DNA from: a virus
Reading direction: 5' to 3' (one strand)
Length of the DNA stretch: 64,000 nt
IMG/VR virus record: IMGVR_UViG_3300017987_000070
Location: 1-64,000 of that record
Shown here: one piece after another, positions 1,610-50,900 of the stretch
Numbering within the stretch: the first letter of the stretch is position 1
How the letters are laid out: each line of letters begins with the position of its first letter
Program-made: the position numbers and the translations under genes
Notes under the pieces: generated by a model
Told to the model about the DNA's origin: nothing
Databases searched by the model: none
The model's input: only the letters and a program-made list of their open reading frames with translations

Positions 1610-3322
1610 ATGAAAGACATGCAAGAGATTGAACGCGCGCTTCGTATCGTAGAAGCGAAGTTGGCGCGCGTAAAGACCGCCGCCAAGGAGCGTCAAGCTC
1701 GAATCCGTGCCAAGATCGCGGGCCTGCAAGGCTTCGCCGCCTCGGAGGAAGCGACGGACGCACAGCGTCTAGAGATCCGCAAGGCTCTGGCTTCCCTTGA
1801 AGCCGGGATGCAGAACATCATGCCTCCCCTTGAGGACGTTGAGAAGGAAGTGGACCGTATCTACGGCGATCAGTCCCTCAACTCCACCTATTACTTCTCT
1901 CGCCGCAACCTCAAGAGCGCTTCTTCAAGCGCTTTGGACAAGTTTCACGACGAGTTGGAGGCGTTTCTTTACCCCCCAGGACAAGGGTCAAGAGAGCCTC
2001 GTGGCGATGTTGATTCCATGCTTAGTGTTTATTATCAAGATCTTGGGAGTGCAGATGAACGAAGGTTGATGGACGATTTGCCTGCAATGAAGAAGCTTTT
2101 GGAACGGGAAAAGCGTCGGCTGAACAATCGTAGAGCCTCGACCAAGCGTGACCCGAAGGTCGCAGCTTTCTTGCGTCAAAGCGAGGCGAGGGAGATCCCC
2201 TGGACTGAACTCACTTACGAGCAGGTTCAAGAGGTTATCGACGACATCTACGGCAACCAGAGCGACAACCAGACCTACTACTTCAACCGCGCTGCCCACA
2301 CTCTTCGCGCGATCGAAGCATCTATGGGAGGTCGCACTGAGATGTCTCTCGTAGACGTCATGAAGCAGATGGATTCTCTCTACGGAGACCTCTCCAAGAA
2401 TGAGACGTACTACCCCTCTCGTCGTCACGAAGACACGATGGACATGGTATCCATCGCAGGTGAAGACGAAGAGATGGAAGACGACGAGTCAAAAAAAAAG
2501 GACTCTAATTGGCAAGTAGACGAGCAGCACTACCTGCTCTCGGATGACTTCTCCGACTCGGGGCATCAGCGCATGTCAGGGTATGAGATCCCCGGCTACT
2601 TCGCTAACGACAACTTCGACTCTCATAATACGGTGGCTCCGACGTACCGCGTAGACAACACGGTGGATACCTTTGGTTACTGGGGCGACGAGGTGGACGA
2701 GATGCCTCACGTGGTCCAGAACCGTGCTCCGGTGCAAGCTCAGACGCGTGAGGCGGGTTCCATGAACCCCATCGCTAAGACCATCTATCAGCAGATGGGT
2801 GGCCGTCGCATGGGCGCCATGATTGGTGTGCAGCAGTACATCAACCTCCCGAACGGCCTCGGCATCAAGTGGCCAAACAAGCAGCGCTCCAGAGGCAACT
2901 ACGTTGAGGTGCTCCTCAACGGTAAAGACCTCTACGATATGACGTTCTACAATGTCTCCCGTAGTGGTAAGAAGCTCGTGAAGAAGTACGCTGACCTCTA
3001 CGCGGAGAGCCTCGTACCTGTCTTCGAGGACCAAACGGGCTGGTACCTGCGGATGTCTTCGGTCAAGACCGCAGCGCTTTCGGGCGCTGACAAGAACGTG
3101 CTCATGGCTTTCCTTGACCACCGTCCAATGGAAGGCAAGATGCTCGTCACCGATGGGGTCAAGCTGGAGAAGATGGGCATGGGAGGACGCGTCATGGCAG
3201 AGTGGGTTCGTGGTAAGGTAGAGGCCACAGATGACCCTCACACCCGCTCGGATGAGGTCATTCTTCGAGCCCTCAAAAAGCACACTCCGAGCAAACTACT
3301 CATCACCTCTCCTACGCTTTGA
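1610..3322 (+). CDS. Modular virion/head-associated protein (coiled-coil N-terminus, 3 internal repeats, conserved phage domain)
   Basis: 570 aa with RBS GAGG. Three D-x-(I/L)YG-x-x-S-x-N-x-TYY repeats, KTAA motifs, and an IAKTIYQQMGG...DLYDMTF...FEDQTG domain typical of phage hypotheticals. Confidence 0.65.
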   Translation: MKDMQEIERALRIVEAKLARVKTAAKERQARIRAKIAGLQGFAASEEATDAQRLEIRKALASLEAGMQNIMPPLEDVEKEVDRIYGDQSLNSTYYFSRRNLKSASSSALDKFHDELEAFLYPPGQGSREPRGDVDSMLSVYYQDLGSADERRLMDDLPAMKKLLEREKRRLNNRRASTKRDPKVAAFLRQSEAREIPWTELTYEQVQEVIDDIYGNQSDNQTYYFNRAAHTLRAIEASMGGRTEMSLVDVMKQMDSLYGDLSKNETYYPSRRHEDTMDMVSIAGEDEEMEDDESKKKDSNWQVDEQHYLLSDDFSDSGHQRMSGYEIPGYFANDNFDSHNTVAPTYRVDNTVDTFGYWGDEVDEMPHVVQNRAPVQAQTREAGSMNPIAKTIYQQMGGRRMGAMIGVQQYINLPNGLGIKWPNKQRSRGNYVEVLLNGKDLYDMTFYNVSRSGKKLVKKYADLYAESLVPVFEDQTGWYLRMSSVKTAALSGADKNVLMAFLDHRPMEGKMLVTDGVKLEKMGMGGRVMAEWVRGKVEATDDPHTRSDEVILRALKKHTPSKLLITSPTL

Positions 3323-3464: not shown

Positions 3465-4133
3465 GTGAGAGACAACGACTCATACATTTACCGTCGCGGC
3501 ACGACTCCCAACACACGAGTCGTCGTGAGCCAGAAGAACAAGATCTTCTCTGTCGCTCATGATAACGCCGCCTTCTCCCAGGTGGGCGTCATGTCCTCCT
3601 TCTCCGTTTCGGAGGCCCGTAGTGTCGAGCCCGTCCGTGGTATCGGTTACGGCGATCAGATTGCCGAGCTTGTCCCCGGTGTCACGGACCCCATCGGGCT
3701 CTCAATCGAGCGTCAGTTGCTCTACCTCGCGAACGCGCACCAAGTGTTCGGTTACGCAGGTGGTGTTGACGGTCTCGTGCGATCTCTGAAGCATCACCAG
3801 TGGCCGTTTGATATCAAGCACGAGCTTGTGTTCTCGCGTATCGCGACGAACGCTTCTGTTCCCAAGCAGGTCTCCCCTGCGACGGATGGCGCCAACGAGG
3901 CTCTCTTGACCTTCTTCGAGGCGTGCTGGCTCAACGACTACTCCTACGACTTCGCGGCAGACGGCGCGATGGTCGCGGAGTCGGTTTCAGCTACGGTCTC
4001 CGACATCGTAGACGGTACGAGCACCTACGGGCAGCTCGCTTCCGACGCCGAGTCCACGGGTAACAACCCATTCTCGGATGTCACGGGTGGTTCGTTCCGC
4101 TACGGTTCTGGTACCGGAGTCCCAACCTTCTGA
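3465..4133 (+). CDS. Tail tube protein
   Basis: Strong RBS AGGAGA before GTG and optimised codons. VGVMSSFSVSE..VEPVRGIG...ELVPG, PFDI and CWLNDYS..F...G..VAESVS match myovirus tube proteins. Confidence 0.75.
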   Translation: MRDNDSYIYRRGTTPNTRVVVSQKNKIFSVAHDNAAFSQVGVMSSFSVSEARSVEPVRGIGYGDQIAELVPGVTDPIGLSIERQLLYLANAHQVFGYAGGVDGLVRSLKHHQWPFDIKHELVFSRIATNASVPKQVSPATDGANEALLTFFEACWLNDYSYDFAADGAMVAESVSATVSDIVDGTSTYGQLASDAESTGNNPFSDVTGGSFRYGSGTGVPTF

Positions 4134-4162: not shown

Positions 4163-4196
4163 GGGGGATAGGAATGTCCTATCCCCCCTTCTTTTT
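4163..4196 (+). terminator. Rho-independent terminator
   Basis: gggggatagga/tcctatccccc stem followed by cttcttttt, after the tail tube stop codon. Confidence 0.75.
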
Positions 4197-5234
4197 GGAG
4201 CCTTACATGAACAAGCTAGCCAAACAACTGATCAAGCTCGGACATACGAATCCTGAACTTCGAGACCATCTTCGCCCTGTGTTGGATAAGATCGCCGCGC
4301 GGGTAGACTTTGGTGCTGTAGATTGGTATGAAACTTGGGCGGAGGGTTTTGAACGCTCTACAAGTGGTTTAGAATCTTTGGTCCGTCAAGTCAAAGGTGT
4401 CGAAGACCTTTCGTTCGACATCAACTGGAATAAGCATTACATGCTAATCGAGGTAGATACCTCTCTAGTTTCACCTTCCAAGGGAGGTAGACCTCATAGC
4501 TTTGATCTGTATGTAGCTTGGTATGATAAGAAGCCAGAGGTACTTACCGTAGAACTAGAGGGTGCAAAGGACATTTCCCTGCCGCTAGATTTGAAACGCT
4601 ACGTCAAACCGGGTTCAGACCCGGATTGGGATGGAGTTGCTGATCATGTGGATGACGTTCTCTACAAGAACTTCAAAAAGGTTTTGACGAAGGCTTTAAG
4701 CTCTGAAGCCAAGAAACACAAGCTGGTCACACAAGCTGAGTACGATAAGATGGTAGCCGAGAAGGAGAAAGCCGAATCGCCTGCCCAAGAGAAAAAAGAG
4801 CGTGCTAAATCAGCCCCAAGTATTGAGAAGCTTGTTCCTGCTCTTAAGGAAGCTCTCCGCAAGGATCGTAACATCTATGTAAACGGAATCGACCTCCCCG
4901 GTAAAGGTCGTGCTGAAAGAAATGAGATCCTCGTGGATTTCTATGACGAGAGAGTACCAGACCTCTTTGACGATCCCAATTTTTATTCAGCGGTTGACCG
5001 TGCCAACGAGGCCGTTGAGAAGCTTCTGAAAGCCGAGCTGCGACCCTTCAAGTCTATGATCACTAAGATGAACATCGAAGGGGACATGGATGACGCCAAC
5101 AGGTTTCTTCTCGCAATCAAGTTGAAGTGACCCACTTACCCTCATTTTGGAGCCTACCATGAACAAGCTCGCAACACAACTCATTCGTCTGGGACATGAG
5201 CATCCTGACCTTCGAGACCACCTTCGTCCTGTGT
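4192..5234 (+). repeat. Two copies (about 4192-4290 and 5144-5240) of a ~95-bp RBS+leader-coding repeat
   Basis: ttttggagcctt/tac(c)atgaacaagct...cctga(a/c)cttcgagacca(t/c)cttcg(c/t)cctgtgttggat occurs at both gene starts. Confidence 0.8.
4207..5130 (+). CDS. Leader-bearing hypothetical protein (putative internal head/cargo protein)
   Basis: RBS GGAG then ATG at 4207 (the ORF-track start 4174 lies in the terminator). Begins MNKLAKQLIKLGHTNPELRDHLRPVL. More AT-rich than neighbours. Confidence 0.7.
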   Translation: MNKLAKQLIKLGHTNPELRDHLRPVLDKIAARVDFGAVDWYETWAEGFERSTSGLESLVRQVKGVEDLSFDINWNKHYMLIEVDTSLVSPSKGGRPHSFDLYVAWYDKKPEVLTVELEGAKDISLPLDLKRYVKPGSDPDWDGVADHVDDVLYKNFKKVLTKALSSEAKKHKLVTQAEYDKMVAEKEKAESPAQEKKERAKSAPSIEKLVPALKEALRKDRNIYVNGIDLPGKGRAERNEILVDFYDERVPDLFDDPNFYSAVDRANEAVEKLLKAELRPFKSMITKMNIEGDMDDANRFLLAIKLK

Positions 5235-5650
5235 TGGATGAGGTCCTCAAGGTGTCGAGTCAGGGTCTCAAGCTCAATGACCTCAAGCTCAACTCTTCGA
5301 CGCGCACGAAGGTAAACACTTGGATGGCTCGCTTCGATCATGATGCCCCTGCGGCAGAGATGGCCGGAGGGAGGGGGTACTTCCCGGCGAACACTGGAGG
5401 TATCTTCCAGAACGCCTCTCGCCCCATGAACCTGGGTGACTTCCGAGACACCGTGGCTATGGGCAATAACACCATCCTCTTCGGCGTCGCGAGTCATGAC
5501 CGTCGTGGGCAGAGGTTCGGGCGCGGCTTTCTGACGACCATGCCTAGCTTCGACGCGGCGAACCTCGCTCGCCAAGGCATCGAGTGTGTTCGGGTTGACG
5601 ACGTTCACCACCTCTGGTACTGTTACATTCCGTTCACTTACGGCTCTTGA
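5159..5650 (+). CDS. Leader-bearing hypothetical protein
   Basis: RBS GGAG, ATG at 5159. Begins MNKLATQLIRLGHEHPDLRDHLRPVL. Confidence 0.7.
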   Translation: MNKLATQLIRLGHEHPDLRDHLRPVLDEVLKVSSQGLKLNDLKLNSSTRTKVNTWMARFDHDAPAAEMAGGRGYFPANTGGIFQNASRPMNLGDFRDTVAMGNNTILFGVASHDRRGQRFGRGFLTTMPSFDAANLARQGIECVRVDDVHHLWYCYIPFTYGS

Positions 5651-5661
5651 GGGAATACCTC

Positions 5662-6726
5662 ATGGACAAACTGTCAAATAAACTCATCAAACTCGGGTAC
5701 ACGAACCCTGAGCTTCGCCCGCACCTCCGAACCCTCTTGAAAAATCTCGATCGTCAAGATACCCATATCCGAGATAGATCGGACAAGATCGCTGGAGGTA
5801 AGATTGAGCCTCTAGGTTTTGACCCTTCAGGGCGCCCTATGTACCTGCACGAGCAGGTGTTCGGCAAGAATAGCTACGTGCGTGACCTCCAGAAGCGCTC
5901 AATCGATCGTAAATACAATTTAGCTATTCGGCACGCAACAAATGGCAGTCTGGCCGAAACCTTGGGCAAGACTCTTAGGCGCAAACTGGAAGGGATATTC
6001 GAAGCAGAGCCAGAGAGCACGCGTGGCGCGGTAATTGACGAGGGTGATGAGGACGGTCAGGCGTGGGCTCGTCTCGTACTGAGGCTTCCCAACACAAACC
6101 TAAAGCTATCTCGGTCCAAGGCCCACACCTTTGCTGTGATTATCGCACAAACCTATTCGGTGGATAAGGTTTGTGTGGCTCAACTCGACGACCTTTCGGA
6201 GTACAATGGCGATCTCTATCTGGAGATTTCATGGTGGGGAGCGATCTGGGACGAAGACCTCGTGAGCTACTACCGTGAGGAAATGGAGCGCAAGCGCAGG
6301 GAAGAAGAGGAGAAAGAGCGTCTCCGTCTTGAGAAAGAGAAGGCTCGTGAAGAGGAAGAGCGCCGTAAGAAGGACCCTGCCTACATTCGGGGCCAGATCA
6401 TGTCTGAACTCGAATACGCCTTGAAAAGTCTGGACTCGGGGAGAGGACGTTACGTTAGTAGTCCCACTCTCGAAGGGAGCTTCATCTATGGAAGCTACCG
6501 CTCCAACCTCGACGAAGACGGTAGTGAGTATGACGACTACTACGAAGACGAGGATGGTGACGATCCGGGCGAGTCCAACTCCTATGAGGAGGCCGTTTCT
6601 TTCGAGGAGGAACGTGCGGAAGAGCGCATAATGAACTACCTTAAAGAGTACGAAAAGCACATCAAAGGCGTTTTTGTTGAGCAAGGCGACAAGAACTACA
6701 TGGAAGTAACCGTGACTCTTAAGTGA
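5662..6726 (+). CDS. Leader-bearing hypothetical protein with charged coiled-coil
   Basis: RBS GAGG, ATG at 5662. Begins MDKLSNKLIKLGYTNPELRPHLRTLL. E/K/R-rich middle and acidic C-terminal domain. Confidence 0.7.
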   Translation: MDKLSNKLIKLGYTNPELRPHLRTLLKNLDRQDTHIRDRSDKIAGGKIEPLGFDPSGRPMYLHEQVFGKNSYVRDLQKRSIDRKYNLAIRHATNGSLAETLGKTLRRKLEGIFEAEPESTRGAVIDEGDEDGQAWARLVLRLPNTNLKLSRSKAHTFAVIIAQTYSVDKVCVAQLDDLSEYNGDLYLEISWWGAIWDEDLVSYYREEMERKRREEEEKERLRLEKEKAREEEERRKKDPAYIRGQIMSELEYALKSLDSGRGRYVSSPTLEGSFIYGSYRSNLDEDGSEYDDYYEDEDGDDPGESNSYEEAVSFEEERAEERIMNYLKEYEKHIKGVFVEQGDKNYMEVTVTLK

Positions 6727-6748
6727 GGCTCACGTACAGTTAGAGCAG

Positions 6749-6785
6749 AGGCCCCCGGAACACACTCCGGGGGCTTTTCTTTTTG
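6749..6785 (+). terminator. Rho-independent terminator
   Basis: gcccccgga/tccgggggc stem followed by ttttcttttt. Confidence 0.85.
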
Positions 6786-6835: not shown

Positions 6836-8827
6836 ATGTTCATTACAGCAAACGTGCCCAAGAAGTACGAGCACATTGACTTCAAACCACCCCAAGGCGT
6901 AGCCGACGCTGCCGAGCGTGGTCTTGAACTCCGCAAAGAGCAATCTGGCGACAAGGCGGGTCTTACGGCTGAAGAGGCCAGTGAGCAGGGCATTGGGTCT
7001 GGAGTCCAGCGCGCCACGAACCTGAAGAACCGCACCAACGTGTCCCCCGAAGTCATCGGGCAGATGGTAGGGTTCTTCGCGCGTCACGGCAAGAACATTG
7101 CCAAGGCTCGTAAGCTCACGACCCAGGAGGAGCAGCTCAAGTCCAACATGTACGTGAGTGACTTGCTCTGGGGAGGTGAGCCCGGCGAGCGGTGGGCCAA
7201 TAAGGTCAAGGAGCAGATGGAAGCCGCAGACGAGAAGGAGAAGAACGCTTCTCTTGCCTCCAGAGTCGCAAGCAGGTACCTCATGGCAGGGAAGCTTGAG
7301 CCGCCTCCCGTCATGTATGCCAAGGCCCTGAAGTGGTTCCAGGGACGTATCGCGCGCCGTATGGAAGATATCATAGACCTTGAGCGCGATAAAGTGCAGG
7401 CTCCAGACCCCTCGTCTCAGTACGAAGACGCGCCCATGTCTTCTATGGAGATCAAGATCGCGGTGAACGAACTCCTCAAGCTCAAAGCCATGTTCAGGGA
7501 CATGGGTAATGAGGATATGATCTATCAAAGAGAGGAGACGATCGATACGTCCCAGGGTCCGCTCAAGGTGAAGCTCTTACCCTCCAATGAAGCTCTGCTG
7601 TCTTACGGGCCGGACACCTTGACGACTCCCCTGGACGACTTCAGGTTCCAGCAAACAGTGGGTCCTTGGATTCGCAAGACGGGCATCACTTCTCGCCGCG
7701 TTTCCAGGGACTACCAAGACAAGATGCGTCGCTACGAAGGAGAGAACCTGACCTACGAGCAACGTGAAGCGAGGCTCAGGGAGCTTTCTGAAGTCGAGGC
7801 AATGTTCCGCCCCTGGAAGGGTAACGATCGTGGCATTGACAACCCTCTGGACGTGGAACTCGACGGGTGGTATCGAGAACTCGACGAGTTCACCTTCAAA
7901 GACCTCCCTCCCCTTTCAATGAAACTGACCCTCTCCAGGGGTGAGATGAACGGAGGTTTCATCTCGGTGTCGGATGACCCTCTAGTCATGATTGACATGC
8001 CCAATGACGTAAGCACTCGTCCGGGCGCTCGTGAGTTGGTCTCCAAGCTCGAAGATCTCCTGCGTCACGAGATGCGTCACTACGCTCAATACCTGTTCCG
8101 TTTGTATCGTGACATCGAAGAGAGAGGTTCCATGTACGGGAATGAGGTCGGACTACCGCACTCTCTCCGTACCCTGGAGTACGATACCATCGTAGCCGAT
8201 GAGATCACTGAACTCCGAAGGTATCTCAAGCATGTCCCCGGAGACCTGCACCCCGTGGTGTTCAAAGCCTGGACCCACGCCTTGACCTCCAGGGACAGGG
8301 ACGACCTCAAGAGGTATATGGTATGGATCAAGCAGAACCCTCGACACGCCATGCCTTCCCGCTTTACGGGCGCTCCTATTGACCCCACACAGGGACGCGA
8401 GTTTTTCCGTCTCATGAAAGATCACGATCACACCAAGTGGAAACGAGCGGTCAAGACCCTGGCTCGTAACGTGAAGATGGGTAAGACCGCGCAAAGGGCA
8501 GCTAACGTCGTGCGTCGTCTCCTCGCGGAGAAGCTGCCTCACATCGCTCGCGTTGACCCCAAGTTCGCGTATGACCTCTACCGTCAGGAAGACCTCAACA
8601 GGGGCAACAACAGCTCCAGGCGAGACTATCCGACCACGGATCTCATGTCTCGTAAGGTCCTCAAGAGCCTCGACGAGAGGATTGAAGCGTTGTCGGACAA
8701 GATCGAACGCTACCAAGACCAGGGCGTGGACCACTCGGGCCTCTGGGATGATCGTGAAGACCTCATGCGTGAGCGCGAGGACATCACCCGCTTCCTCAAA
8801 GATACGCTGGGCTTCAAGGGGAAGTAA
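6836..8827 (+). CDS. Multidomain protein: phage LLWGG-type N-terminal domain + HExxH zincin-like domain
   Basis: N-terminal FKPPQGVADAAERGL...GVQRA...FFARH...DLLWGG..G..WA domain common in phage head-associated proteins. Also LRHEMRHYAQ and the linkers ASRVASRYLMA and KTAQRAANVVRRLLA. Confidence 0.65.
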   Translation: MFITANVPKKYEHIDFKPPQGVADAAERGLELRKEQSGDKAGLTAEEASEQGIGSGVQRATNLKNRTNVSPEVIGQMVGFFARHGKNIAKARKLTTQEEQLKSNMYVSDLLWGGEPGERWANKVKEQMEAADEKEKNASLASRVASRYLMAGKLEPPPVMYAKALKWFQGRIARRMEDIIDLERDKVQAPDPSSQYEDAPMSSMEIKIAVNELLKLKAMFRDMGNEDMIYQREETIDTSQGPLKVKLLPSNEALLSYGPDTLTTPLDDFRFQQTVGPWIRKTGITSRRVSRDYQDKMRRYEGENLTYEQREARLRELSEVEAMFRPWKGNDRGIDNPLDVELDGWYRELDEFTFKDLPPLSMKLTLSRGEMNGGFISVSDDPLVMIDMPNDVSTRPGARELVSKLEDLLRHEMRHYAQYLFRLYRDIEERGSMYGNEVGLPHSLRTLEYDTIVADEITELRRYLKHVPGDLHPVVFKAWTHALTSRDRDDLKRYMVWIKQNPRHAMPSRFTGAPIDPTQGREFFRLMKDHDHTKWKRAVKTLARNVKMGKTAQRAANVVRRLLAEKLPHIARVDPKFAYDLYRQEDLNRGNNSSRRDYPTTDLMSRKVLKSLDERIEALSDKIERYQDQGVDHSGLWDDREDLMREREDITRFLKDTLGFKGK

Positions 8828-8829
8828 AC

Positions 8830-9705
8830 ATGCCCAAGACGCACTACAAGCTGGACCGATCAGACGCCTCCAGACGCGCGTATCGGGACGCAGAGCGCGA
8901 GTTGGAGGAAGCCAAGGCGTATGGGTTCATTACGTGGAAAGAACTCCACATCGTACCTCTCAGGGAGATTGAACCCCAAAAGGTGTGGAACCCTCCCCGT
9001 ATCGAGCGCATCCGTGAGGGGATAGAGCGTGGGGTAGCCCTCCCTGCGGTGTCTCTAGCTCGAAACGAGGGTGGTCGTTACAAATACAGCATCTCGGACG
9101 GCATTCATCGCTACAATGCTTCAGTGGAAGCGGGGTTCACTCATATCCCCGCCATGATCACCTTCTCCAAGGAGACGCCCGAACTCTTGGAGGAGCCCAA
9201 GGTCTTCCAAGAGGGTACTTACGTTCGCTTCAAGAGGCCCATAGACGGCTTCGAGGTTGGATACCTCGTGGAGAACATCTTCGGGGATGTCTTCGTGACA
9301 GTCGCAGGCAATGCGACGGACGCCGAGTGGATAGGCGACATCCCTGCTAGCAGCTTCGAGGAGGAGATTGACCCTCCCCGTCAAATCAAAGAGAAAATTC
9401 AAGGACACTGGTTCATGCAAAAAACCTCTTCCCGTATCGCCTCGACCTACCTCTCCCACATGCTTCGTGATCGCACGGCAAAAAACCTACCCAAGAAGGT
9501 CGAGGAGTACGTCAAGAAATTCGAGGACGAGGGCAAAGACCCAGGGTACTCTTACGCGCTGGCTTGGAGCATCTACTGCAAGCATAAGAACCCCGACTCG
9601 CCTCACTGCATGGCAGACAGTTACCTAGACAATCAGGGTAAGAAGTCGACTCAAGACCTCTCCCAAGCGGTACTCAGGCGCTATCTGGAGAACCTGAATG
9701 ACTGA
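8830..9705 (+). CDS. ParB/Srx-like N-terminal domain multidomain protein
   Basis: LPAVSL...YSISDGIHRYNAS...GFTHIPA is the ParB/Srx DG-HR motif. Small C-terminal module YALAWSIYCK. Confidence 0.7.
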   Translation: MPKTHYKLDRSDASRRAYRDAERELEEAKAYGFITWKELHIVPLREIEPQKVWNPPRIERIREGIERGVALPAVSLARNEGGRYKYSISDGIHRYNASVEAGFTHIPAMITFSKETPELLEEPKVFQEGTYVRFKRPIDGFEVGYLVENIFGDVFVTVAGNATDAEWIGDIPASSFEEEIDPPRQIKEKIQGHWFMQKTSSRIASTYLSHMLRDRTAKNLPKKVEEYVKKFEDEGKDPGYSYALAWSIYCKHKNPDSPHCMADSYLDNQGKKSTQDLSQAVLRRYLENLND

Positions 9706-10477
9706 CATCGCATACCACGTCACCTACGCTCGGAACCTCGAAGGTATAGGCTCGTCTGGGCTCGTACCCGGCAGAGGTTCTAACTTCGGTGGAGCCTACC
9801 GAGGGCACTCTTCAGGGCGCATCTTCCTGTGCGACTTCAAGTCTGTCAAGTTTTGGATTGGCAAACTGTGGGACATGGCAGAGGCCAACTCGGATACGCC
9901 GCTTGAAGACGGCTTGATTCCCATCGCGCTCAAGGTCAAGGTGCCCCGAGGGATGGAGCTTCAGGTAGACGAGGCCGGGTCCAGAGACTCACGAGGCGAA
10001 GCCTACTTCGTCGAGGACACGATCCCGGCGAGTAACATCCTCCATTGGGACGGTTCCTCTTATAGTCCAGTGTCAGGGGCAGATGTAGAGTACCTCATTG
10101 ATGTAGCCAAAGACAACTCAGAACTCGAAGACTACGGTGACGGTGAGGTCTTCTACGACTTCGGATACGGAGATCATTTCATGCCCAGACAAGCCACAAT
10201 GGCCCAAAGAGTCGCTACCCGTGTTATGACGGATCAGATGGCCTCACGTGTCGCATCTCGCGTTCTCGTAGCCGAAAACAAGCCCACCAATCCTGACCTT
10301 TGGGAGAAGGTTCAAGAGCTTGTACGGGGCGACCGTAAGAGCCTCTCAGTAGGTGACAAGACCTACGAGTCTCCTAATGACGGCAAGGGCTTCAAGAAAC
10401 ACCCCAGCGCTTACTCGAATGGTTTTGCAGTTAAGGTTTACAATGATCTCGGCGGCGGCTGGAAAGCAAAGGACTGA
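9698..10477 (+). CDS. ADP-ribosyltransferase-like (Tpt1/KptA-type) domain + PSAY-type phage domain
   Basis: AYHVT...LEGI...GLVP...RIFL and IP...I motifs. C-terminal KPTNPDLW...HPSAYSNGFAVKVY..LGGGW. Confidence 0.6.
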   Translation: MTDIAYHVTYARNLEGIGSSGLVPGRGSNFGGAYRGHSSGRIFLCDFKSVKFWIGKLWDMAEANSDTPLEDGLIPIALKVKVPRGMELQVDEAGSRDSRGEAYFVEDTIPASNILHWDGSSYSPVSGADVEYLIDVAKDNSELEDYGDGEVFYDFGYGDHFMPRQATMAQRVATRVMTDQMASRVASRVLVAENKPTNPDLWEKVQELVRGDRKSLSVGDKTYESPNDGKGFKKHPSAYSNGFAVKVYNDLGGGWKAKD

Positions 10478-10480
10478 ACC

Positions 10481-12145
10481 ATGACTCGATACATCCACTT
10501 CACTGATATGTCCGGTGCGAAGGCAATCCGCCACTCGGGTACCCTCATGGCGTCGTCTTTCATCAGCGGCGTGTACGCGGTCAAGGAAGGTTCTCCCTTC
10601 GTTCCCGGCGTACAGCAGACCACTCTAGGTCGCGCCAAGAACCGCAAGGTCGCAGTAGTCTTCACGACCCCCATCAAGCCCGACTACTGCGACCCGGAAG
10701 AGTGCGTCTGGAGGTTGGATGAGATCCCGGTCAAGGTCGAGCGCGTCATGCTGGCCTCTCAAGCGGTCAAAGACTACCTTCAGGTGGTCAAGGAAGCTCG
10801 CACGCCCTATGCCCTGGGTCTCCCAGGTGGCCCCTGCCACATCATCAGGGATGTGGAAGCAGAGAAGCTCCCCGAGCGCGTCAAGCAGGAACTCATCGAA
10901 GACATCGAAAAGGGTAAGGACCTCTCGAACTCGGCAGCGGACTTGATCTATCCTCCGCAGAGGTTCAACGCCAAGGCAGACCTTTTCTCGAAGGTCCTCC
11001 TCACCTCCCACGCTCAGTACCGTATGAACCTCCGTGGGATTACGCTCCCCGAGATTCAGGACGTGTTCGTCGAGTTCGACAAGTGGTACAAGGCTCGCGC
11101 CAAGAAGCCCAAGAGCCTCACCGGCGAACAGCGCAAGCTCATGACAGACCTCGCGTATGGAGAAGCTGCGAGGTTTGAGGGCAGCAGGTCAGGGATCACC
11201 ATCGTGTTTGCGGTAGACTCTCGTAAGAACGAAGCTCGCCTCGTCTCGTGTTGGTGGACGAACTCTCCCAAGACCCCCAAGCCCACTCCAGGGCAGTGTG
11301 ACTTCGTTCCGTATCTGGACAAGGATCGCAGCTTCGAGAGGCCCTCCATCCTGGGGCACACGCTCATGAAAGACATCGCCCACAAGGTCGCCCGCCGCGT
11401 ATGGTTCACGAGCCGTCAAGCTGCCAAGCCCGGTCCCGACCCGGACAAGGGAGATGGCTTGAACACTTGGTTCTCCGACAAAGCCAAAGGGGGCGATTGG
11501 GTTGCCATTTCTCCGGTCAAGAAGACCATTGAGAAGGAGGACGGCACCAAGAAGACCTTCGAGCCCGGTGACATCGTAGGCCCATGCGGTGACCCTGATG
11601 GAGAGTGGAAAGACCTCACCAACGACGGAGATGATCCCCTCAAGTGCCTGAACAAGAGCAGGGCTCAAGGTATGAGCAAGAAAGAGCGCGCCGAGGCTGC
11701 GAAGGCTAAAAAGCGTGAGGAGAAGAAGGCTCCCGAGGGCCAGAAGCCCACGCATGTCGACACGAAGCAAGATAAGAAGTCTCATGAGATCGCTAAAGCC
11801 GTGGCACGCCGTCTGTTTTCTCAAATGCAGCGCACCTCAAAAAAGACCTATCGAGACCTTCTAAATGAAAACGAAGTCTCGGAAATCCAAAGACTTCTGG
11901 GCATTGCTCGTAATAACTTGGATGTTTACCAAGCGACAGATACTTTGGATAGGAATGACCTCCAGTCAAGGGAAGTCCTGAGCGTTCTCGAAGAGGTTAC
12001 AGGCTCAGCCGCCTTGTTTGAGGTTGACCGGGGTCGTATGCATCACGACCTCGTAGACCACATGAATACCTGGGAGAAGATCTGTAAGGCTGCTCGTTTC
12101 GACTGGAAAGCTAGCTACCAAAAAACGTTGGACATCTTTTCCTGA
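10481..12145 (+). CDS. Multidomain protein: ART-like (H-F-T) domain, DUF4258/RelE-like domain, WF..WV..CG..KC domain
   Basis: YIHFT...AKAI..SG.L...GVY; LTSHAQYRMNLRGIT; GLNTWFS...DWVAI...CG...KCL...GMSKKERAEAAKAKKR. Domains are separated by KEA, RQA and RTS linkers. Confidence 0.6.
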   Translation: MTRYIHFTDMSGAKAIRHSGTLMASSFISGVYAVKEGSPFVPGVQQTTLGRAKNRKVAVVFTTPIKPDYCDPEECVWRLDEIPVKVERVMLASQAVKDYLQVVKEARTPYALGLPGGPCHIIRDVEAEKLPERVKQELIEDIEKGKDLSNSAADLIYPPQRFNAKADLFSKVLLTSHAQYRMNLRGITLPEIQDVFVEFDKWYKARAKKPKSLTGEQRKLMTDLAYGEAARFEGSRSGITIVFAVDSRKNEARLVSCWWTNSPKTPKPTPGQCDFVPYLDKDRSFERPSILGHTLMKDIAHKVARRVWFTSRQAAKPGPDPDKGDGLNTWFSDKAKGGDWVAISPVKKTIEKEDGTKKTFEPGDIVGPCGDPDGEWKDLTNDGDDPLKCLNKSRAQGMSKKERAEAAKAKKREEKKAPEGQKPTHVDTKQDKKSHEIAKAVARRLFSQMQRTSKKTYRDLLNENEVSEIQRLLGIARNNLDVYQATDTLDRNDLQSREVLSVLEEVTGSAALFEVDRGRMHHDLVDHMNTWEKICKAARFDWKASYQKTLDIFS

Positions 12146-29616: not shown

Positions 29617-29880
29617 ATGAAACCTGATACCCTTGAACAGTGGACCACCTACCTCTCGGGACTCACAGATGAGCGCCTCGGTGTCGAATCTATCACGGCG
29701 AACTCATTGCAATTCGTCCAGATTCTCAAAGAAGAGGGCAAGGAGCCCGGTGAGATCGGTGCGATCCTGAAAGCCTTCGCGGTAGAGCTTGACAAGAGGG
29801 GGATGCCTTTGAGTGATCGTGGCCCTCGTCAGATGGTGTCCTACTACCGACTGATCAACGATTACCCTGATGGAAAGTGA
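29617..29880 (+). CDS. Hypothetical protein
   Basis: RBS AGGAG; 87 aa; coupled to the next gene. Confidence 0.65.
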   Translation: MKPDTLEQWTTYLSGLTDERLGVESITANSLQFVQILKEEGKEPGEIGAILKAFAVELDKRGMPLSDRGPRQMVSYYRLINDYPDGK

Positions 29881-30340
29881 TACCATGCTCACACTTGCTT
29901 CACAGCTACTACACGTCGCGAAAGACTTCCCCGAGTTCTCCGAAGACTTGGACCCTCTCATCGCGAACGTAATCTATACCCAAAGCAAGAGGGAGGCCCA
30001 AGTCAAGACGGCGGGCACCAAGCTCAAGGACATCATGGGAGGCAAGTCTATCCTGGGACTGAAGAAGAGCGTGGCCCACCGTATCGAGCGTCAGCTCAGG
30101 ATGTATGGGCTCGACGCAGACTCGGCAGCGATCCTTCTGGGGTCAAGAGAGATCAAGATCGTCATTACGGCGAGCATCACGGACCCTGATGAAGATCCTT
30201 ATACCGACTTTGCGGCGAACTACATCGCTCAGGAGATTGTTATGGATCTCCAGCGGTCCCTTGCGTACAAGGTCACCGGGAAAGGTCGGTACTCCACGTT
30301 CACCGACTCGGTAGTAATCACCCTCTTTCAGAAAGTCTAA
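29870..30340 (+). CDS. Hypothetical protein with degenerate leader and KTA motif
   Basis: TLASQLLHVAKDFPEFSEDLDPLI resembles the leader of the 4207/5159/5662 proteins; followed by QVKTAG. Confidence 0.6.
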   Translation: MESDTMLTLASQLLHVAKDFPEFSEDLDPLIANVIYTQSKREAQVKTAGTKLKDIMGGKSILGLKKSVAHRIERQLRMYGLDADSAAILLGSREIKIVITASITDPDEDPYTDFAANYIAQEIVMDLQRSLAYKVTGKGRYSTFTDSVVITLFQKV

Positions 30341-31692: not shown

Positions 31693-31722
31693 ACTCTAAC
31701 TTAGGTTCGCACTCGTTGTCAA
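31693..31722 (-). promoter_or_regulatory. Sigma70-like promoter (TTGACA-18-TAGAGT)
   Basis: The minus strand reads TTGACA acgagtgcgaacctaagt TAGAGT, about 30 nt upstream of ATG 31662. Confidence 0.5.
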
Positions 31723-32936
31723 CCGAAGATTTTACGCATGAGCTTGGCGTTGGTCGTGTAAACGACCTTCTCATCGAAGAAAGCCTGCCATTCGTCCTCG
31801 CGGCAGTTGTCAAACGCTTCCGTGTCTGTGGTACCGATGTATTCGAGGTTCGGGTGGTCCCTAAGAACCTTAAACGTGGGGCCGTGTAGCCCACGGACAT
31901 AGTAGTCAAGGAAGACCGCTTTGAGATGGGGGTAGCCAGGGAGGTACCCCATTCTATCAAAGCTAAGAGTGAGCTTCACGTACTCGAAGTTGCCTGGAAG
32001 CTTGCCTTCTCCAAACGCCTCACACCCTTTCAAGGTCTTGAGGTCCCAGACCTTGACGTACCGGCCTACCAGATTGTTATCAAACTTGCCGTAAGAGTCC
32101 ATTGTGAGATGCTTCGGCTCCCACTGACGCAAGATACCGTCCACATAGGGCAGGAAGACCTCATGGTACTCACGATTCTTCTCGCAGTTCTGGAGCATGG
32201 CCAGCACCGTCTTGAACCCACTCTTGCTCGGCTTGATGGTTTGCATGGCCGATCGCAAGTCACCGAAGTTATCGACGCCCAGACCCATGAAGTATGAGTT
32301 GACCTTGCTCGCGATGCGCTTGATCCGCTTCTTTTCGTGGCTAGCACCCTTAAAGCTGAGTTCAAGCCTTGACCATTCGTGAGAGTTCAGCTTGACCGAC
32401 AGTTGCCAGTCGTGACGCCAATGACTGTTGTACTCTTTATTCTTCCGGCGCATGAGGTCAGACCACACTGACCCCACGTGCTCTAGGACCCCCTTAAAGA
32501 TCTGTTTCAGGTTGAACTTGGGGATGACACCCTGACCCCTCACGACACACTCTTGAATGTACGCCTTGAAGACACTGGGTCTCCCGACCCCTTCGGCAAG
32601 AGGCTTCCATGAGAGGGACATGTCTTCCGGCCACTCTTCAGGGTATACCTCGTCATGCCACACCGAACGGGCGTCGAAGCTATCCTGAACCAAAGTGAGA
32701 AGCTCGGGGGAGAGGTCTTCAAGACGGATAGAAGGTGTAGTTAGATCGCTGAATCCCGCGTCGACCTCTTCGCGAGTCTCCCGCCACCCCTTGAAGAAGA
32801 CTACGTGGTAGGACTCCCCGAAGATCGGGAGGAAGAACTTCCAGTCGAACACTTCCAGGGACTTGATTTCCGCATCGAGCTTGTGCATAAGCTCGATGGC
32901 GTCATAGGTCTTTGAGAGATCGTCGGCGGTAATCAT
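31719..32936 (-). CDS. FG-x-LRS domain + LRR-like protein
   Basis: RBS GAGGA before ATG 32936. FGDLRS...PS...F..VL...EY.EV.LPYV..IL..W, then short LRR-like strands (LKAVFLD, LEYIGT). Confidence 0.65.
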   Translation of the reverse strand: MITADDLSKTYDAIELMHKLDAEIKSLEVFDWKFFLPIFGESYHVVFFKGWRETREEVDAGFSDLTTPSIRLEDLSPELLTLVQDSFDARSVWHDEVYPEEWPEDMSLSWKPLAEGVGRPSVFKAYIQECVVRGQGVIPKFNLKQIFKGVLEHVGSVWSDLMRRKNKEYNSHWRHDWQLSVKLNSHEWSRLELSFKGASHEKKRIKRIASKVNSYFMGLGVDNFGDLRSAMQTIKPSKSGFKTVLAMLQNCEKNREYHEVFLPYVDGILRQWEPKHLTMDSYGKFDNNLVGRYVKVWDLKTLKGCEAFGEGKLPGNFEYVKLTLSFDRMGYLPGYPHLKAVFLDYYVRGLHGPTFKVLRDHPNLEYIGTTDTEAFDNCREDEWQAFFDEKVVYTTNAKLMRKIFG

Positions 32937-32974
32937 GTCGTTCCTCTTCACGAGTAGTAGCTTGTCTCACCTTG

Positions 32975-33435: not shown

Positions 33436-34746
33436 TCACTTTTTTGAAAAGAAATCGTTGATGGCGCTTGTGGGACTCTTGCCGTCCAGATATTCAGCTT
33501 GAGGATACATCTCCTCCACCTCCTTCACGAAGTTCACCCGGCACGTGGTGTAGACCTTCTCCACGTTGGGGAACCTCTCCGAGACGGGAACGAGCCAGCC
33601 CGGAGTGTAGTCGAAGATGAGCACCTTCACGTTTGGATAAGACACCCTCTCCGCCAAGGGAGAGAGTTGGGGAATTCCGTTCTGGAACTTGAAGAAGATC
33701 ACCTCGGGGTCCCCTGGGAGGGCGTTGTGACTGTGAAAGAGCTTGTACCCCTTCATCGTCTCGACCTTCCACACCTTCGTGAGACCCGCGATCTCCTTGT
33801 CATACTTGTCGGTCGTGAGTTCACGGTCCGACACACGCCAGGATCGGTCCATCACGGAGTGAACGTAAGGGAGAGTGACGTTGTAGAACTCCCCGTTCTT
33901 CTCCATGTTCTGAAGCGTCTTGAGGACCTTACGGAAGTGCTTCTTCGACCCCGGCTGCTGCATGAGAGAGCGGATAGCCCCGAACCCGTCAGGCTCCAAT
34001 ATCGAGAAGACCTCTTCGATCACCTCCAGCCCGCCCTTGATTACCTCTTTCGGGTTGCGAAGATAACCTGTCAGGGACTTGGACCTCTCGTGGAAGTGAA
34101 TCTTATTCAGGTTGTGCGACGTTGCCGTGGTGATGTGAGCGAGCGCATGAGAACTCGAGTTAGGGTGCGCACTGTACGCGACTCGGATCTTCTCGACTTC
34201 CTCATCCCAGCTCTGGTAGAGAAGGGTCTTCAGCTCATTCAAGACCCGCTCAAGAACCCGGACCGGGATGTAACCATACCCCGACTCCATCTTCTCGTAC
34301 ATGTCTTCGACGGCACGGTCTCGCAGGCTCTCGTAGCGATCTCCCCATACCTCATCGATCCCAAAAATCCTCTCATCGAACCCCAGAGGGACGACGGAAA
34401 TTAGGGGACCACCCATAGGGCGGTGTTGGAGGACCTTCTGAAGCCAAGGTGTCTCCCATTCACGGTCCAGGGTGAGGTTCTCCTTCTCGTCGAGAATCCA
34501 ACCTCTAAGGTCTTCATTCAGGGATGAGGCCGCGATGAAGGTAGCCGAAAGGTTGGAGGACCTGCGGTAAAGGTCCCGAGAGTTATGATCCCAGTGTTGT
34601 TTCTTGGTCTCACACTCAAAGCCGAGACCCCTCACGTACTCTTCCGCGCTCAGGTACTCAGAGACCACCTGGGTCTTGAGCATCGTGTAGAAGGTCTGGA
34701 GCACTTCTCCAGAGGCTTGAAGGGCGGCGGTATCTGCTTTCATCAT
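33436..34746 (-). CDS. FG-x-IRS domain + LRR-like protein (paralog of 31719..32936)
   Basis: RBS GGAG before ATG 34746. FGAIRSLMQQPGSKKHFRKVL...EFYNVTLPYV..VM..SW...TKVWKVETMKG, then LRR-like VKVLIFD and VEKVYT. Confidence 0.65.
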   Translation of the reverse strand: MMKADTAALQASGEVLQTFYTMLKTQVVSEYLSAEEYVRGLGFECETKKQHWDHNSRDLYRRSSNLSATFIAASSLNEDLRGWILDEKENLTLDREWETPWLQKVLQHRPMGGPLISVVPLGFDERIFGIDEVWGDRYESLRDRAVEDMYEKMESGYGYIPVRVLERVLNELKTLLYQSWDEEVEKIRVAYSAHPNSSSHALAHITTATSHNLNKIHFHERSKSLTGYLRNPKEVIKGGLEVIEEVFSILEPDGFGAIRSLMQQPGSKKHFRKVLKTLQNMEKNGEFYNVTLPYVHSVMDRSWRVSDRELTTDKYDKEIAGLTKVWKVETMKGYKLFHSHNALPGDPEVIFFKFQNGIPQLSPLAERVSYPNVKVLIFDYTPGWLVPVSERFPNVEKVYTTCRVNFVKEVEEMYPQAEYLDGKSPTSAINDFFSKK

Positions 34747-34772
34747 CTTACTCCACAAGGGGTTCTACGAGG

Positions 34773-46916: not shown

Positions 46917-47993
46917 ATGGCGAAAGACCTCCTACTCAAACATGTATGCCCGCACTTCGTGGTACGAGAGTGGTTGGCGATCGAATCCGACCGGACGATC
47001 ATCAACACGGTGCGTCTCCCCTCCTCAGTCCGGGTGGAAGTCAGGGCGAACGGGATCATCATCCCCAACGGGGGCCTCACCTCCCCGGTGAGTGTAGCTT
47101 CCCGCAACGCAGAGCCCTTCGAGATCACCCGCAACGTCAATGACGAGCTTCGCTTTACCGTAAACGAAGGCTCGCTTCAGACGGTGTTCCTCCCCACGGG
47201 TCAGAACGTCACGACGGCGCTCATCGTCGAGGCGATCAACGAGCAAGCTCAAGGTCTCGTGGCAGAAGAGAGCAACCGTCGCATACGCCTGACTACCGAC
47301 ACGACAGGAGAGAGCACAACTCTCTATCTCCAGGGCGGCTCGGCACACACGACGCTGGGGTTCACTTCCTCCCGCTTCTACCGAGGGAAGACGATCTTTC
47401 CTGCCTGGAACCTCACGCGCCGTCCTAACACGGTTGACCCTCTGGAGCGTCGGATTGAGTTTGCCAATCCAGTCCGCACCGCTGATGACATCTTCGAGGT
47501 GTCCTACTTCACGCGCCGTCAAGAATGCCGAAGGTGCTCGGGTCTGGGCATAGAAAACGACATCCGATTCGACGACCGGGGTGACCCCATCTTCGTGACC
47601 GGCATCGATCTCCTCGCCCAAGAGGTGGAGAAGATCACGTTCACGATCCGAGGGAGCAACGTCTTCTACAATTGGTACGGCACCTCGATCACGGATCTCA
47701 TCGGGACCAAGATCATCCGGGGAGGCTCTCTAATCGAGACGCAGTTGCTCACTGAGATCAGCAACACGCTGGAGAGGTTCCGGTCGGTCAAGACTCAGCA
47801 GGCAGGCTTGCAGCCGGTGGGAGACCAAGAGTTCTTCCAACGGGTCCGAAACATCAGCGTCGTGCAAGACCCTGACGACCCTACCGTGTTCCGCATCCGA
47901 ATCGACATCCAAAACGCCGCCGATGAGGTAGCTCAGTTGCAGCAGAACCTCGTATTGCAAGGCGGAGTTCAAGGCCCCCAACTCGTAGGATAA
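46917..47993 (+). CDS. Baseplate wedge protein, gp25-like C-terminal domain
   Basis: LLAQEVEKITFTIRGSNVFYNWYGTSI...DDPTVFRIRIDI is gp25/GPW-like. CPH and CRRC motifs. Precedes baseplate J. Confidence 0.7.
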   Translation: MAKDLLLKHVCPHFVVREWLAIESDRTIINTVRLPSSVRVEVRANGIIIPNGGLTSPVSVASRNAEPFEITRNVNDELRFTVNEGSLQTVFLPTGQNVTTALIVEAINEQAQGLVAEESNRRIRLTTDTTGESTTLYLQGGSAHTTLGFTSSRFYRGKTIFPAWNLTRRPNTVDPLERRIEFANPVRTADDIFEVSYFTRRQECRRCSGLGIENDIRFDDRGDPIFVTGIDLLAQEVEKITFTIRGSNVFYNWYGTSITDLIGTKIIRGGSLIETQLLTEISNTLERFRSVKTQQAGLQPVGDQEFFQRVRNISVVQDPDDPTVFRIRIDIQNAADEVAQLQQNLVLQGGVQGPQLVG

Positions 47994-47996
47994 ACC

Positions 47997-50900
47997 ATGC
48001 CCGCTACACCCCCACAGTTCAATCGAGTCCAGGGAGGCACGTCCACCACGTTGAATCTGGTCACGACGATCCGCGATCAGGTCTTCACCGGGGTCATTGA
48101 TACCAACACCGTCGACCTCCAAGTGAGCGTGGACGGTGCTCCTTTTCGCGCGGACCCAACGCTCGTGGAGTTCGATCAGTCCACGTTCACGATCCCCAAC
48201 AGGAACGTGTTCCCTGACGGCTTGAGCTTGAACTTCGGGAGGAACGTCATCCAAGTGCGCGCCGTGGACACCACTGGAGCGGTCTCGTCTCCCTCTACTG
48301 TCACGGTCGACCTCCTCCGTGAAACCGAGGTGGACCTCGTGAGCGCTCCTCCTACGGGCATCCGTCTACGCAGGAAGCGTGCCAGCGTGGAGGTCGTTTT
48401 CGCTCAAAGCGATCTCCAGAACGTGAGAGGTTACAATGTTTACGCGTCTACCGAGCCCGGAGGGGGGACCTCGGGTTACTTCAAGCTCAACCGAGACCTC
48501 ATCACCGACGTGGCGTTTCAAGAAGAAACTCTCACCGCTGTATCTGAGAATGACACCTCCACTTCGGGCATCAGGACCGTGTTCTTGGACTCGGAGTTCG
48601 GTGAGGTCGGGGTCACTATTGATCAAAGAGACTTCAACGATACCGTCCTCTCCTCGAATGAGACCCAGTTGGTAGACGCGTCCCTGGGGGGAGCGAGACT
48701 GAAGGTCACCACGACCGTCGAGAGCGTGACGACCACGAACTTCCTCCTCTTCGAACATAACCGAAGTGCGACCGAAGCTCAAGGCACGATCAACAATGAG
48801 TTCTTCGTGGACATCCCCGATGATGAGCCCTTGTACTACGTGATCACCACGGTGGTCTACGACCCCATCACCAATCGAGAGATAGAGTCTGCGTTCTCCT
48901 CGGAACTCACGGGACTCCCCCTGGCGATTGATTCCCAGATTCGAGAGATTCCCCGTAGGACTCGCTTTGACGTCTCAGAGGATTACATTGACTCGATTTT
49001 GAGCATAGACAATGAGATATCGGTCATCCCAGGGTCGGTAGTACGGGACATCTTCATTGACCCGTTCGCCACGGAAGCCGAGCGCCTGTACTTCGTAGCG
49101 GACTTTATCTCACGTTCGCAGAGCTTCGCGACGTTGCTCGTAGTCGACGGGTCCGATTCCTACAAGGCAGCTCTTGCTTCGGCTCTTGGAATCAACGCCA
49201 CGACTGACGTGCAGCCGATCATCGACGACAGTTTCGACAAGCTCGCGGGGAACAATCAGGTCACACGTCAGGGTGCAGAGATCGCCTTGGGTGAAGTGGT
49301 GTTCTTCACTCCCAACGAACCTACTCAGGACATCGTGATCGAAGCCGGTACGTCTGTAGGCACCGACAGTAACGTCACCTTCACGGTGACCGCCACAACA
49401 ACACTGCCCTTCGCAGATCGCGCCTCTTACTTCAACCTTCAGCGTCAACGCTATGAGATCACGGTCCCCGTGCAAGCCGACGATGCAGGATCAGCAGGGA
49501 ACGTCCCTGCGAACACGATCCGCAACACGCTCGGAGGCGTGGGCACGCTTCAGGTGACGAACCTCGAAGCGACTCAGTTTGGACGCGACGAAGAGTCCAA
49601 CGAAGACCTCGCCACCCGAGCCATCCTCGCGTTCTCATCAGTGGACGCAGGAACCGAAGCGGGCTATCTTGCCACCGCGCTCAGACAGCAAGGGGTGTTC
49701 AGGGCACTCGTGGTAGAAGCGGGCGATCAGTACATGGCACGCGACTACGACGAAGTTCGTATGAAGAACATCGGAGGCAAGGTTGACGTCTGGGTTCAAG
49801 GCGAGAAGCTCGTCACCGTCTCTGACACCTTCGCGTTGCAGTTCGATGTGGAGAGGGATGTACGCTTCTTCCTCGACTCCAACCCTTCGGACCTCATCTT
49901 CGTGGCAGACGACGACCGTTTGTCTCCCGAGGCTCCCATCACTCAAGTGTTGGGTGAGACCCCCAGTGAGATCGCGCAAGGGTTTGGGTTCAGGAACCTC
50001 ACGTCGGGAGAGACGTTTGACCTCTCCGGCGTGGCGATTCTCGACTTCAACCGTATCCAGCTCAACACGGCGATCCCACAACCTGCGGTCAACCCAAACG
50101 ACCTCATTTCAGGAGACTACAGGTTCCGTGAGAGTGATCAGTTCGTGTTCACCCGACAGCCGGTAAGGAGCGTCAACTCCGTGCAGAGCATCACCTCGGG
50201 GGACACTCTCGCCCGAGGGACCAACTACGACCTCTTCAAGCTCGAAGATCCTCTCTTCGAGGGGGAGTCGACGCAGGCTCAAGACTTCTTGCAAATCACG
50301 CAGGCCAACGGCATTCCCACAGGTGATGTGGTCATCGTGAACAACGAGAGCCACGTGCTCATCGGTCAAATCCCCGAGGCGTTGAACAACCTGGGTGTAA
50401 GTCCTCTTACGGTACGCGTGTTCAACCTGGGTCGCACCATCGAGTATGCGGGACCCACGGCAGCTACCCCGGACTTCTTTATCAACCCCGGTGACGAGAC
50501 GACTCCTCTGGAGCTTGTCCGCAACCCAGATGGTACGATCACCAACGGTCAAGAAGTCGTCGTCGACTACGAACACGATGAGAACTTCTCCGTCGAGTAC
50601 GTCATCAACGAGGTGGTACAAGACGTCCAGAACGCCGTGGAAGCTCAAAGGCACGTAACGGCTGATGTTCTGGTCAAGCAGGCGATTGAGAACCCGGTGG
50701 ACCTCGAAATCACGATCGTGCTGGCTCCTGGCGCGGTTCAAGCAGTCGTGGACGCTGCGGTAAGGACCAACGTGTCTCAGTTGCTCAACTCTCTGGGCAT
50801 CGGTGAGCCCGTCCACCAGAGCGACATCCTTCGGGTGATTGAGAACACTCCGGGCGTGGACTACGTGGTGGTGCCTCTCGCGCGACTGACACACGCAGAC

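Follow-up and report, generated by a model that had tools for sequence, protein, structure and literature searches.

The internal-protein cargo of T-even phages is anti-host or defence-related, and the capsid targeting sequence (CTS) of phage T4 is strictly N-terminal and is removed by the gp21 protease. The docking hairpin of the phage P22 scaffold is present as one copy, on one protein, at the C terminus, and its binding is largely electrostatic. In cellular operons that also carry shell genes, the encapsulation peptides of bacterial microcompartments (BMCs) and the cargo-loading peptides of encapsulins, whose shells have the HK97 capsid fold, are single amphipathic helices of ~10-20 residues; they sit at the termini or between the domains of unrelated cargo, tethered by flexible linkers, and bring about both the aggregation of cargo and its attachment to the shell. 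The T4 CTS is ~10 residues long and directs a varied set of internal proteins into the scaffolding core of the prohead (PMC3012670), and a U-shaped C-terminal helix-turn-helix of ~30 residues on the P22 scaffold attaches to the inner face of the procapsid, with one hairpin for each coat subunit (PMC9965877). Foreign proteins fused to that hairpin are loaded into P22 capsids (PMC9962691). Passages of Iyer et al. 2017 predict that polyvalent proteins are packaged and injected with the DNA, and propose that MuF and ArdC-N "header" domains couple effectors to the delivery apparatus (PMC5512222). Here we describe a ~27-residue peptide module that heads several otherwise unrelated proteins in a 64,000-nucleotide stretch of viral DNA (hereafter, the window), the first 64 kb of the 85.8-kb IMG/VR virus record IMGVR_UViG_3300017987_000070 (GC 55%). 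We tentatively read this module as a portable docking tag that would tether cargo to one phage-made partner, most likely the inside of the assembling capsid or scaffold, and we give this reading somewhat less than an even chance.

How often does the module occur in this contig? All six frames were scanned with regular expressions and profile hidden Markov models (HMMs), among them the 46-sequence profile A6, which was scored among 1,945 frames. Copy A (4207-4290, + strand; MNKLAKQLIKLGHTNPELRDHLRPVLDK; 57 bits) heads gene A (4207-5130, +; 307 aa), in which AlphaFold2 (AF2) predicts two alpha/beta domains after the module. Copy B (5159-5242, +; 54 bits) heads a gene at 5159-5650 (163 aa), and copy C (5662-5745, +; 54 bits) one at 5662-6726 (354 aa). 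Copy D lies on the other strand (57778-57689, -; 43 bits) at the head of a 351-aa gene (56723-57778, -), for which an ATG at 57793 is an alternative start that adds five residues. A fifth copy falls outside the window (contig 70813-70277, -). A sequence-only reading of this DNA had proposed a shared N-terminal leader at 4207, 5159, 5662 and 57778, and both the regular expressions and the HMM recover it at these four places. With profile A6 the five copies reach 43-57 bits (E = 2.5e-12 to 7e-17), the best non-member frame 7 bits (E = 0.4). All five are N-terminal, and such a number on unrelated bodies within 86 kb is far above chance. A degenerate copy that had also been proposed, at 29870-30340 (+), scores 0.9 bits with A6 and is missed by every profile, and we dropped it as a sixth member.

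The family consensus, drawn from IMG/VR loci, is (K)ASLRSxLIRLAHxNPELRPHLLPLLK, with a conserved core of L-R-x-x-L-I-R-L-A/G-H-x-N-P-E-L-R-x-H-L-L/R-P-L-L; the copies in the window form the subtype LIKLG..NPELRxHLRPxL. Information content is high at positions 4-26 only, with P16, R19 and P24 nearly invariant. The flanks are rich in K, E, D and G and carry weak signals, K-x-A-S before the module and K-x-A-A after it (K27-x-A29-A30, <1 bit each), and position-specific information shows no conserved cleavage motif on either side. The small-residue site that the sequence-only reading had placed after each leader has no constant position: in A it coincides with the last part of helix 2 (the weakly conserved K-x-A-A at family positions 27-30), and in C it comes ~20 residues further on. 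AF2 predicts a helix-turn-helix for every copy modelled (in copy A, helices at 2-14 and 16-31; in the two-tag protein P0087, H3-14/H16-32 and H70-83/H85-98), with hairpin values of the predicted local distance difference test (pLDDT) of 56-76 in these two models. The predicted module is thus a pair of amphipathic helices with an x-N-P turn between them. In the window, the copies have hydrophobic moments of 0.52-0.65. Their net charge ranges from -3 to +4, which makes DNA binding by charge unlikely. The linkers between module and attached parts are flexible, charged or low-confidence; that of copy A, at residues 30-38, has a pLDDT below 50.

How far does the family extend? A profile of the five copies found 11 places in LR745208.1, the closest GenBank phage (uncultured, 485 kb; 36% identity over a baseplate wedge protein), and, by way of back-translated patterns, 25 loci on IMG/VR contigs. 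The 46-sequence profile, run against 1.84 billion cluster representatives, matched 4,397 proteins at E <= 1e-3, 537 of them at E <= 1e-10; searching with an HMM of the leader has given five copies here and thousands of family members elsewhere. Four phage contigs of 220-290 kb each hold 6-11 copies, distributed along the contig. A degenerate DNA pattern of the consensus form had a single match in 185,579 cellular species genomes, on a phage-like contig of a metagenome-assembled genome (MAG) with the same polyvalent layout. Among 50,697 GenBank phage records LR745208.1 alone matched (E = 2e-8); two others at E <= 10 fell within DNA polymerase genes at chance level (E = 9). The module has no counterpart in Pfam, PHROG, NCBIfam or PDB, a PDB sequence search with its profile returned designed helical proteins only, and a string search of the literature found no paper text with the motif. 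The module is thus undescribed in the sources searched, and virus-only bar the one phage-like MAG contig.

Where in proteins does the module sit? The best 150 of the library matches, a set biased towards multi-copy proteins, hold 346 copies: 109 N-terminal, 181 internal and 56 C-terminal. A less biased set, the window plus phage loci, has 61 copies, of which 45-48 are N-terminal, 9 internal and 4 C-terminal. Architectures include one tag before a body, a tag at each end, directly adjacent tandem pairs at a spacing of 27-38 residues, and polyproteins with a tag between successive domains. The smallest are two-tag mini-proteins, down to 86-115 aa, that consist of two tags and a charged or low-complexity spacer (P0140, P0087, P0025). 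The leader of the window is thus a local subtype of a position-independent module of ~27 residues, not an N-terminal leader as such. A third motif, GCEKLPEGPMRDNCEKKK, recurs after the tags in the mini-proteins P0140, P0033, P0011 and P0066.

These layouts raise the rather unlikely alternative that the module is a self-associating "sticker," whose hairpins would pair as four-helix bundles or stack like a solenoid, so that tagged proteins would condense with no separate receptor into one body (a viral factory, inner body or scaffold-like core). The many proteins with a tag at each end of a low-complexity spacer suit it, as do the tandem pairs, the polyproteins with one tag per domain, the charged spacer flanks and the continuous hydrophobic face of the hairpin. 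However, a single tag at the N terminus is the usual arrangement in the less biased set (45-48 of 61 copies), and the AF2 model of P0087 packs its two hairpins without confidence (predicted template modelling score 0.41; hairpin pLDDT ~70). The bivalent mini-proteins, the tandem pairs and the tag per domain fit multivalent binding to a repetitive lattice and tag-tag association equally well.

A further alternative is a recognition element for a processing or modifying enzyme, such as a polyprotein-cutting or maturation protease; the tags would then show where between domains a polyprotein is to be cut, and the N-terminal copies would be propeptides lost once assembly is over. In polyproteins the tags stand exactly between domains, after G/K-rich linkers (..GK-KASLR..), and N-terminal copies start (M-S-x-L-R) at the point where internal copies begin (A-S-L-R). 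Proteolytic processing of polyvalent proteins is, moreover, proposed in passages of Iyer et al. (PMC5512222). We nevertheless consider this role quite improbable, since nothing beyond the hairpin is strongly conserved: information outside positions 4-26 peaks at no more than 1 bit, in the K-x-A-S and K-x-A-A flanks, and a structured hairpin of 23 residues is atypical of a protease site. No peptidase was found in tagged proteins save one weak SprT-like match, no Peptidase_S77 was detected in LR745208.1, and cleavage would bring no benefit to stand-alone genes whose two ends both carry a complete tag.

What does the module carry? Grouped by body, the 56 sequences that bear the module in the window and phage loci make up 43 clusters, a tabulation that bears out the diversity of downstream domains. 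Most bodies match nothing, and those with a match belong to the usual polyvalent-protein repertoire: ART-PolyVal (E = 4e-12), ParBc_2 and pentapeptide repeats in relatives, together with RelA_SpoT, WGR, SprT-like (the weak match above) and LRV arrays. MuF was not found on tagged proteins. The polyvalent feature, at least two effector-type domains (ART, ParB, peptidase and the like) in a single polypeptide encoded by packaging or late genes, is seen in tagged proteins of relatives (L026, L032, L044, L046); in the contig, proteins A-D and the protein with the fifth copy match no Pfam, PHROG or NCBIfam domain and so lack it. A term search of Iyer et al. 2017 gave no passage on such a module (PMC5512222). 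A second short module, (K)EFPSxEALKKYLKxHPxADxSKHTV, often directly follows the tag, ahead of ParB-like domains (L026, L032, L035, L044, L046 and many library matches, e.g., P0014, P0018 and P0040); a strict pattern for it fits 10 of the 346 tags.

With a cargo of host-manipulating type, a virus-only distribution and a position independence that suits a binding motif, the hairpin could also be a hook for one abundant host protein (a chaperone, a polymerase subunit or a membrane or secretion component) through which many phage proteins are drawn to, or act upon, one host machine. The strong conservation of the module across contigs of differing habitat and GC fits a conserved phage partner better than diverse hosts, however, and the cargo-free two-tag mini-proteins are hard to explain on such terms; we hold a host hook to be very unlikely.

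Are the bodies of the tagged proteins related to one another? In BLASTP between bodies the leader alone matches, save for one composition-dependent match of A to C (E = 3e-4) that is gone with composition correction, is absent with an HMM of the A family and has a hhalign probability of 0.3%. Between small family alignments, hhalign gave every body-body pair a probability below 6%. The claim that the leader precedes otherwise unrelated proteins therefore stands; homology throughout the bodies, which would make them simple paralogues, was looked for by hhalign and is not the case. The AF2 model of gene A has a mean pLDDT of 75, and Foldseek searches with it against PDB, BFVD and VIA-wide returned only background (ferredoxin-like and type III secretion system chaperone-like folds; Z <= 8), the best being a ferredoxin-like match of the C-terminal domain (Z = 8).

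These comparisons weigh on the least probable of the alternatives, for which we see little chance: a structural capping hairpin or a relic of LRV- or HEAT-like repeats with no common partner, or else five very divergent paralogues. In a multiple alignment, the C-terminal ends of A, B, C and D look loosely alike and beta-hairpin-like, a likeness that for A and C was unconfirmed by HMM and hhalign. As bodies unrelated by hhalign are joined by cargo of unrelated known folds, simple paralogy is excluded (BLASTP, A-family HMM and hhalign agree). The string A-x-x-N-P-x-L...L-L..L does resemble an LRV repeat, with a faint LRV_2 echo (E = 0.024), and two tagged proteins contain real LRV arrays; yet the module lies below every LRV threshold, and five contigs have no LRV match, a result on which we also rejected an LRV array as the tag's receptor. 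As for capping, in A4207 a low-confidence linker parts the module from the body, rather than letting it pack.

We return to the docking tag and ask whether selection acts on its peptide. Copies A and B are 79% identical at the nucleotide level across the module and the upstream TTTTGGAGCCTAC, which gives both genes the same ribosome-binding site (RBS) context ahead of the ATG; their proportions of synonymous (pS) and nonsynonymous (pN) differences are 0.39 and 0.14. For the remaining pairs, codon analysis gives a pS of 0.6-0.9 and a pN of 0.2-0.46. Where computable, dN/dS of the module is 0.2-0.5, and synonymous sites are near saturation. Because pS is far above pN with synonymous sites near saturation, conservation acts on the peptide, and the module is under purifying selection; the DNA-level likeness of A and B, RBS included, and selection on the peptide had both been anticipated by the sequence-only reading. 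Its suggestion that the leader serves as a recombination handle fared less well. Module DNA identity of 50-65%, with saturated synonymous sites, is too low for a handle at the DNA level, A/B excepted; the part that endures is the turnover of cargo and the variable island described below.

The module is portable, and orthologues in other huge phages keep it. The orthologue of A, P0153, keeps 28 of 30 module residues, whereas past the module the next ~170 residues are ~20-25% identical and the last 100 ~85% (alignment estimates). The C orthologues P0155 (87% identity) and P0156 (49%) also begin with the module, degenerate in P0156, and the D orthologue P0158 (59% identity) retains it. Portability is supported because orthologues keep the module while the adjacent body diverges. 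Conversely, two leaderless genes in the window (31719-32951 and 33436-34758, -) have a middle part that resembles the post-module segment of D (BLASTP E = 2e-4 and 0.037; hhalign 61%, E = 8e-5, 57 columns). The window gene at 6836-8827 has no tag, and its orthologue in the relative L048 has a degenerate N-terminal one (11.7 bits at full length); in L047, the closest relative, a C-terminal tag ends the gene that lies upstream of a 222-aa core gene. The same body thus occurs with and without the tag, as expected of a portable unit.

Genes A-B-C (4207-6726) form a cassette bracketed by two terminator-like hairpins, one just upstream of gene A (4163-4187, +; 11-bp stem and T run) and one just downstream of gene C (6747-6778, +; 13-bp stem and T run). 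Its left anchor is the 222-aa core gene (3465-4133, +), which has relatives at 47 IMG/VR loci (44-89% identity) on contigs of up to 452 kb. Family and structure searches with the 222-aa protein gave no match; it may have a structural role and is usable as a clade marker. A, B and C are absent downstream of this gene in 47 of 47 related loci, which makes the cassette a variable island beside a core gene.

What, then, might the module do? Since it is portable, selected and virus-specific, joined by flexible linkers to diverse cargo, a docking element for a common partner is the best explanation; both the binding and the identity of the partner are steps that we infer. Any protein or polyprotein domain with the module would be tethered to one common phage-made partner, most likely the interior of the assembling capsid or its scaffold or core. 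We favour that location because of the cargo repertoire, the presence of some copies among virion genes and the precedents of the T4 CTS and P22. The variable cargo set (ADP-ribosyltransferase, ParB-like and pentapeptide effectors in relatives) would then be packed and delivered with the DNA, and multi-copy proteins and two-tag mini-proteins would add avidity or cross-link. A bolder form, to which we assign a lesser though still appreciable chance, is that a universal, position-independent loading address or self-assembling sticker lets an uncultured clade of 400-500-kb phages fill the capsid with hypervariable injected effectors. The sequence-only reading had proposed a capsid-targeting peptide; what holds of this is a portable unit under protein-level selection on unrelated, fast-changing bodies, the N-terminal leader as such does not, and capsid targeting is the leading but unproven reading.

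Several observations weigh against a capsid-docking tag. Internal, C-terminal and tandem copies are unneeded for a simple address tag, and the net charge of -3 to +4 differs from that of the basic P22 hairpin. That cargo ends up in the virion is likewise something we infer. The fifth copy neighbours a UvrD-type helicase gene, not a virion block, and the immediate neighbours of genes A-C have no assignable function in family and PDB searches. The contig, ~17% of the genome, has no recognisable capsid, portal or protease gene, and neither it nor the 485-kb LR745208.1 has a PF07068 (gp23) or PF03420 (Peptidase_S77) match, although very divergent homologues could escape such searches.

In what kind of genome does the module sit? 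CheckV puts the completeness of the contig at 17%, which makes it a fragment of a ~500-kb uncultured phage. Few genes of the window have an assignable identity, among them the baseplate wedge genes (46917-51401), an RNA-ligase/phosphoesterase fusion and an SNF2 helicase. Gene D adjoins a gene for a tail-fibre-like protein of 1373 aa, and the baseplate wedge genes are ~6 kb off. The fifth tagged gene is downstream of the helicase gene, with one open reading frame of 258 aa between them; this gene, beyond the window (contig 71604-76715, -; L001:7604-12715), encodes a 1703-aa UvrD-type helicase split by Hint/intein and LAGLIDADG homing-endonuclease segments. Near the cassette, 851-1486 encodes a DPBB_1 (RlpA-like lytic transglycosylase) domain protein (E = 9e-9) that may be a virion-associated cell-wall enzyme. 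DNA sequencing runs with matching sequence are sediment and seawater metagenomes, possibly the contig's own source; no RNA run was among the runs listed.

The four genes that follow the cassette (6836-12145) resemble multi-domain cargo proteins, one of them (8830-9705) with a weak ParB_N match (E = 4e-4), and a recurrent RVAxRY helix in this region is found in relatives too (L047 9246-10964, L048 10967-11578). Upstream, a 570-aa protein (1610-3322) has three 24-residue VEKEVDxIYGDQSKNxTYYFxRxx repeats (1838-1909, 2225-2296 and 2357-2428), then a phrog_9437 domain. Its orthologues in relatives have one to five YGDQSKN repeats, that of L047 having five and ending in the helix-hairpin tag, and one such repeat lies between both tags of the 99-aa P0087. 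We considered these YGDQSKN-x-TYY repeats as a general tag partner and rejected the idea because they are missing from tag-rich contigs: they are absent from four of these, from LR745208.1 and from 157 of 158 proteins.

Huge phages have hundreds of genes of unknown role, and a single tag on several thousand otherwise unrelated families would single out proteins bound for one place as a functional class, assignable without knowing the role of each and including recognised host-attack domains. Were the capsid interior the partner, the tag would mark the proteins that enter the host with the infecting phage, and the T4 internal-protein principle would be broadened to another tag architecture, in use at either protein end and between the domains of polyproteins. 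The "injectome" of such phages, mostly of unknown function, could in that event be read from sequence, and a 27-residue tag could load foreign proteins into these capsids. The module is a good candidate for a new protein-family entry and offers a concrete and cheap experimental handle, one peptide and one partner to look for.

How does the module compare with described systems? Its echo of the LRV repeat is 15 bits for LRV_2 against a cutoff of 27, there is no PF01816 match in five contigs, and its copies are mostly solitary, not arrays. Unlike the BMC and encapsulin peptides, it is a two-helix unit restricted to phage contigs. Like polyvalent proteins, the tagged proteins of relatives string together ART-PolyVal, ParB-like, pentapeptide and unknown domains, whereas the five tagged proteins of the contig have no recognised polyvalent domain. 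With the T4 CTS (of IPI-III and Alt), compared by features and not by sequence alignment, it shares the arrangement in which a short conserved peptide is the only common part of diverse, fast-evolving phage proteins, and the ART, ParB and pentapeptide cargo of relatives is of the same anti-host or defence type as that of T-even phages. It departs from the CTS in being ~27 residues long, a predicted helix-turn-helix, and internal, C-terminal and tandem as well as N-terminal; no conserved cleavage motif lies by it, and no gp21- or gp23-type genes were detected in the contig or LR745208.1. The T4 analogy is a loose one, and its strict form, N-terminal and cleaved, does not hold. From the P22 hairpin, a basic single C-terminal copy, it differs in occurring anywhere along a protein, in thousands of different proteins, and it has no sequence match to any solved structure. 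In size and in AF2-predicted shape, a helix-turn-helix of ~30 residues, the two match.

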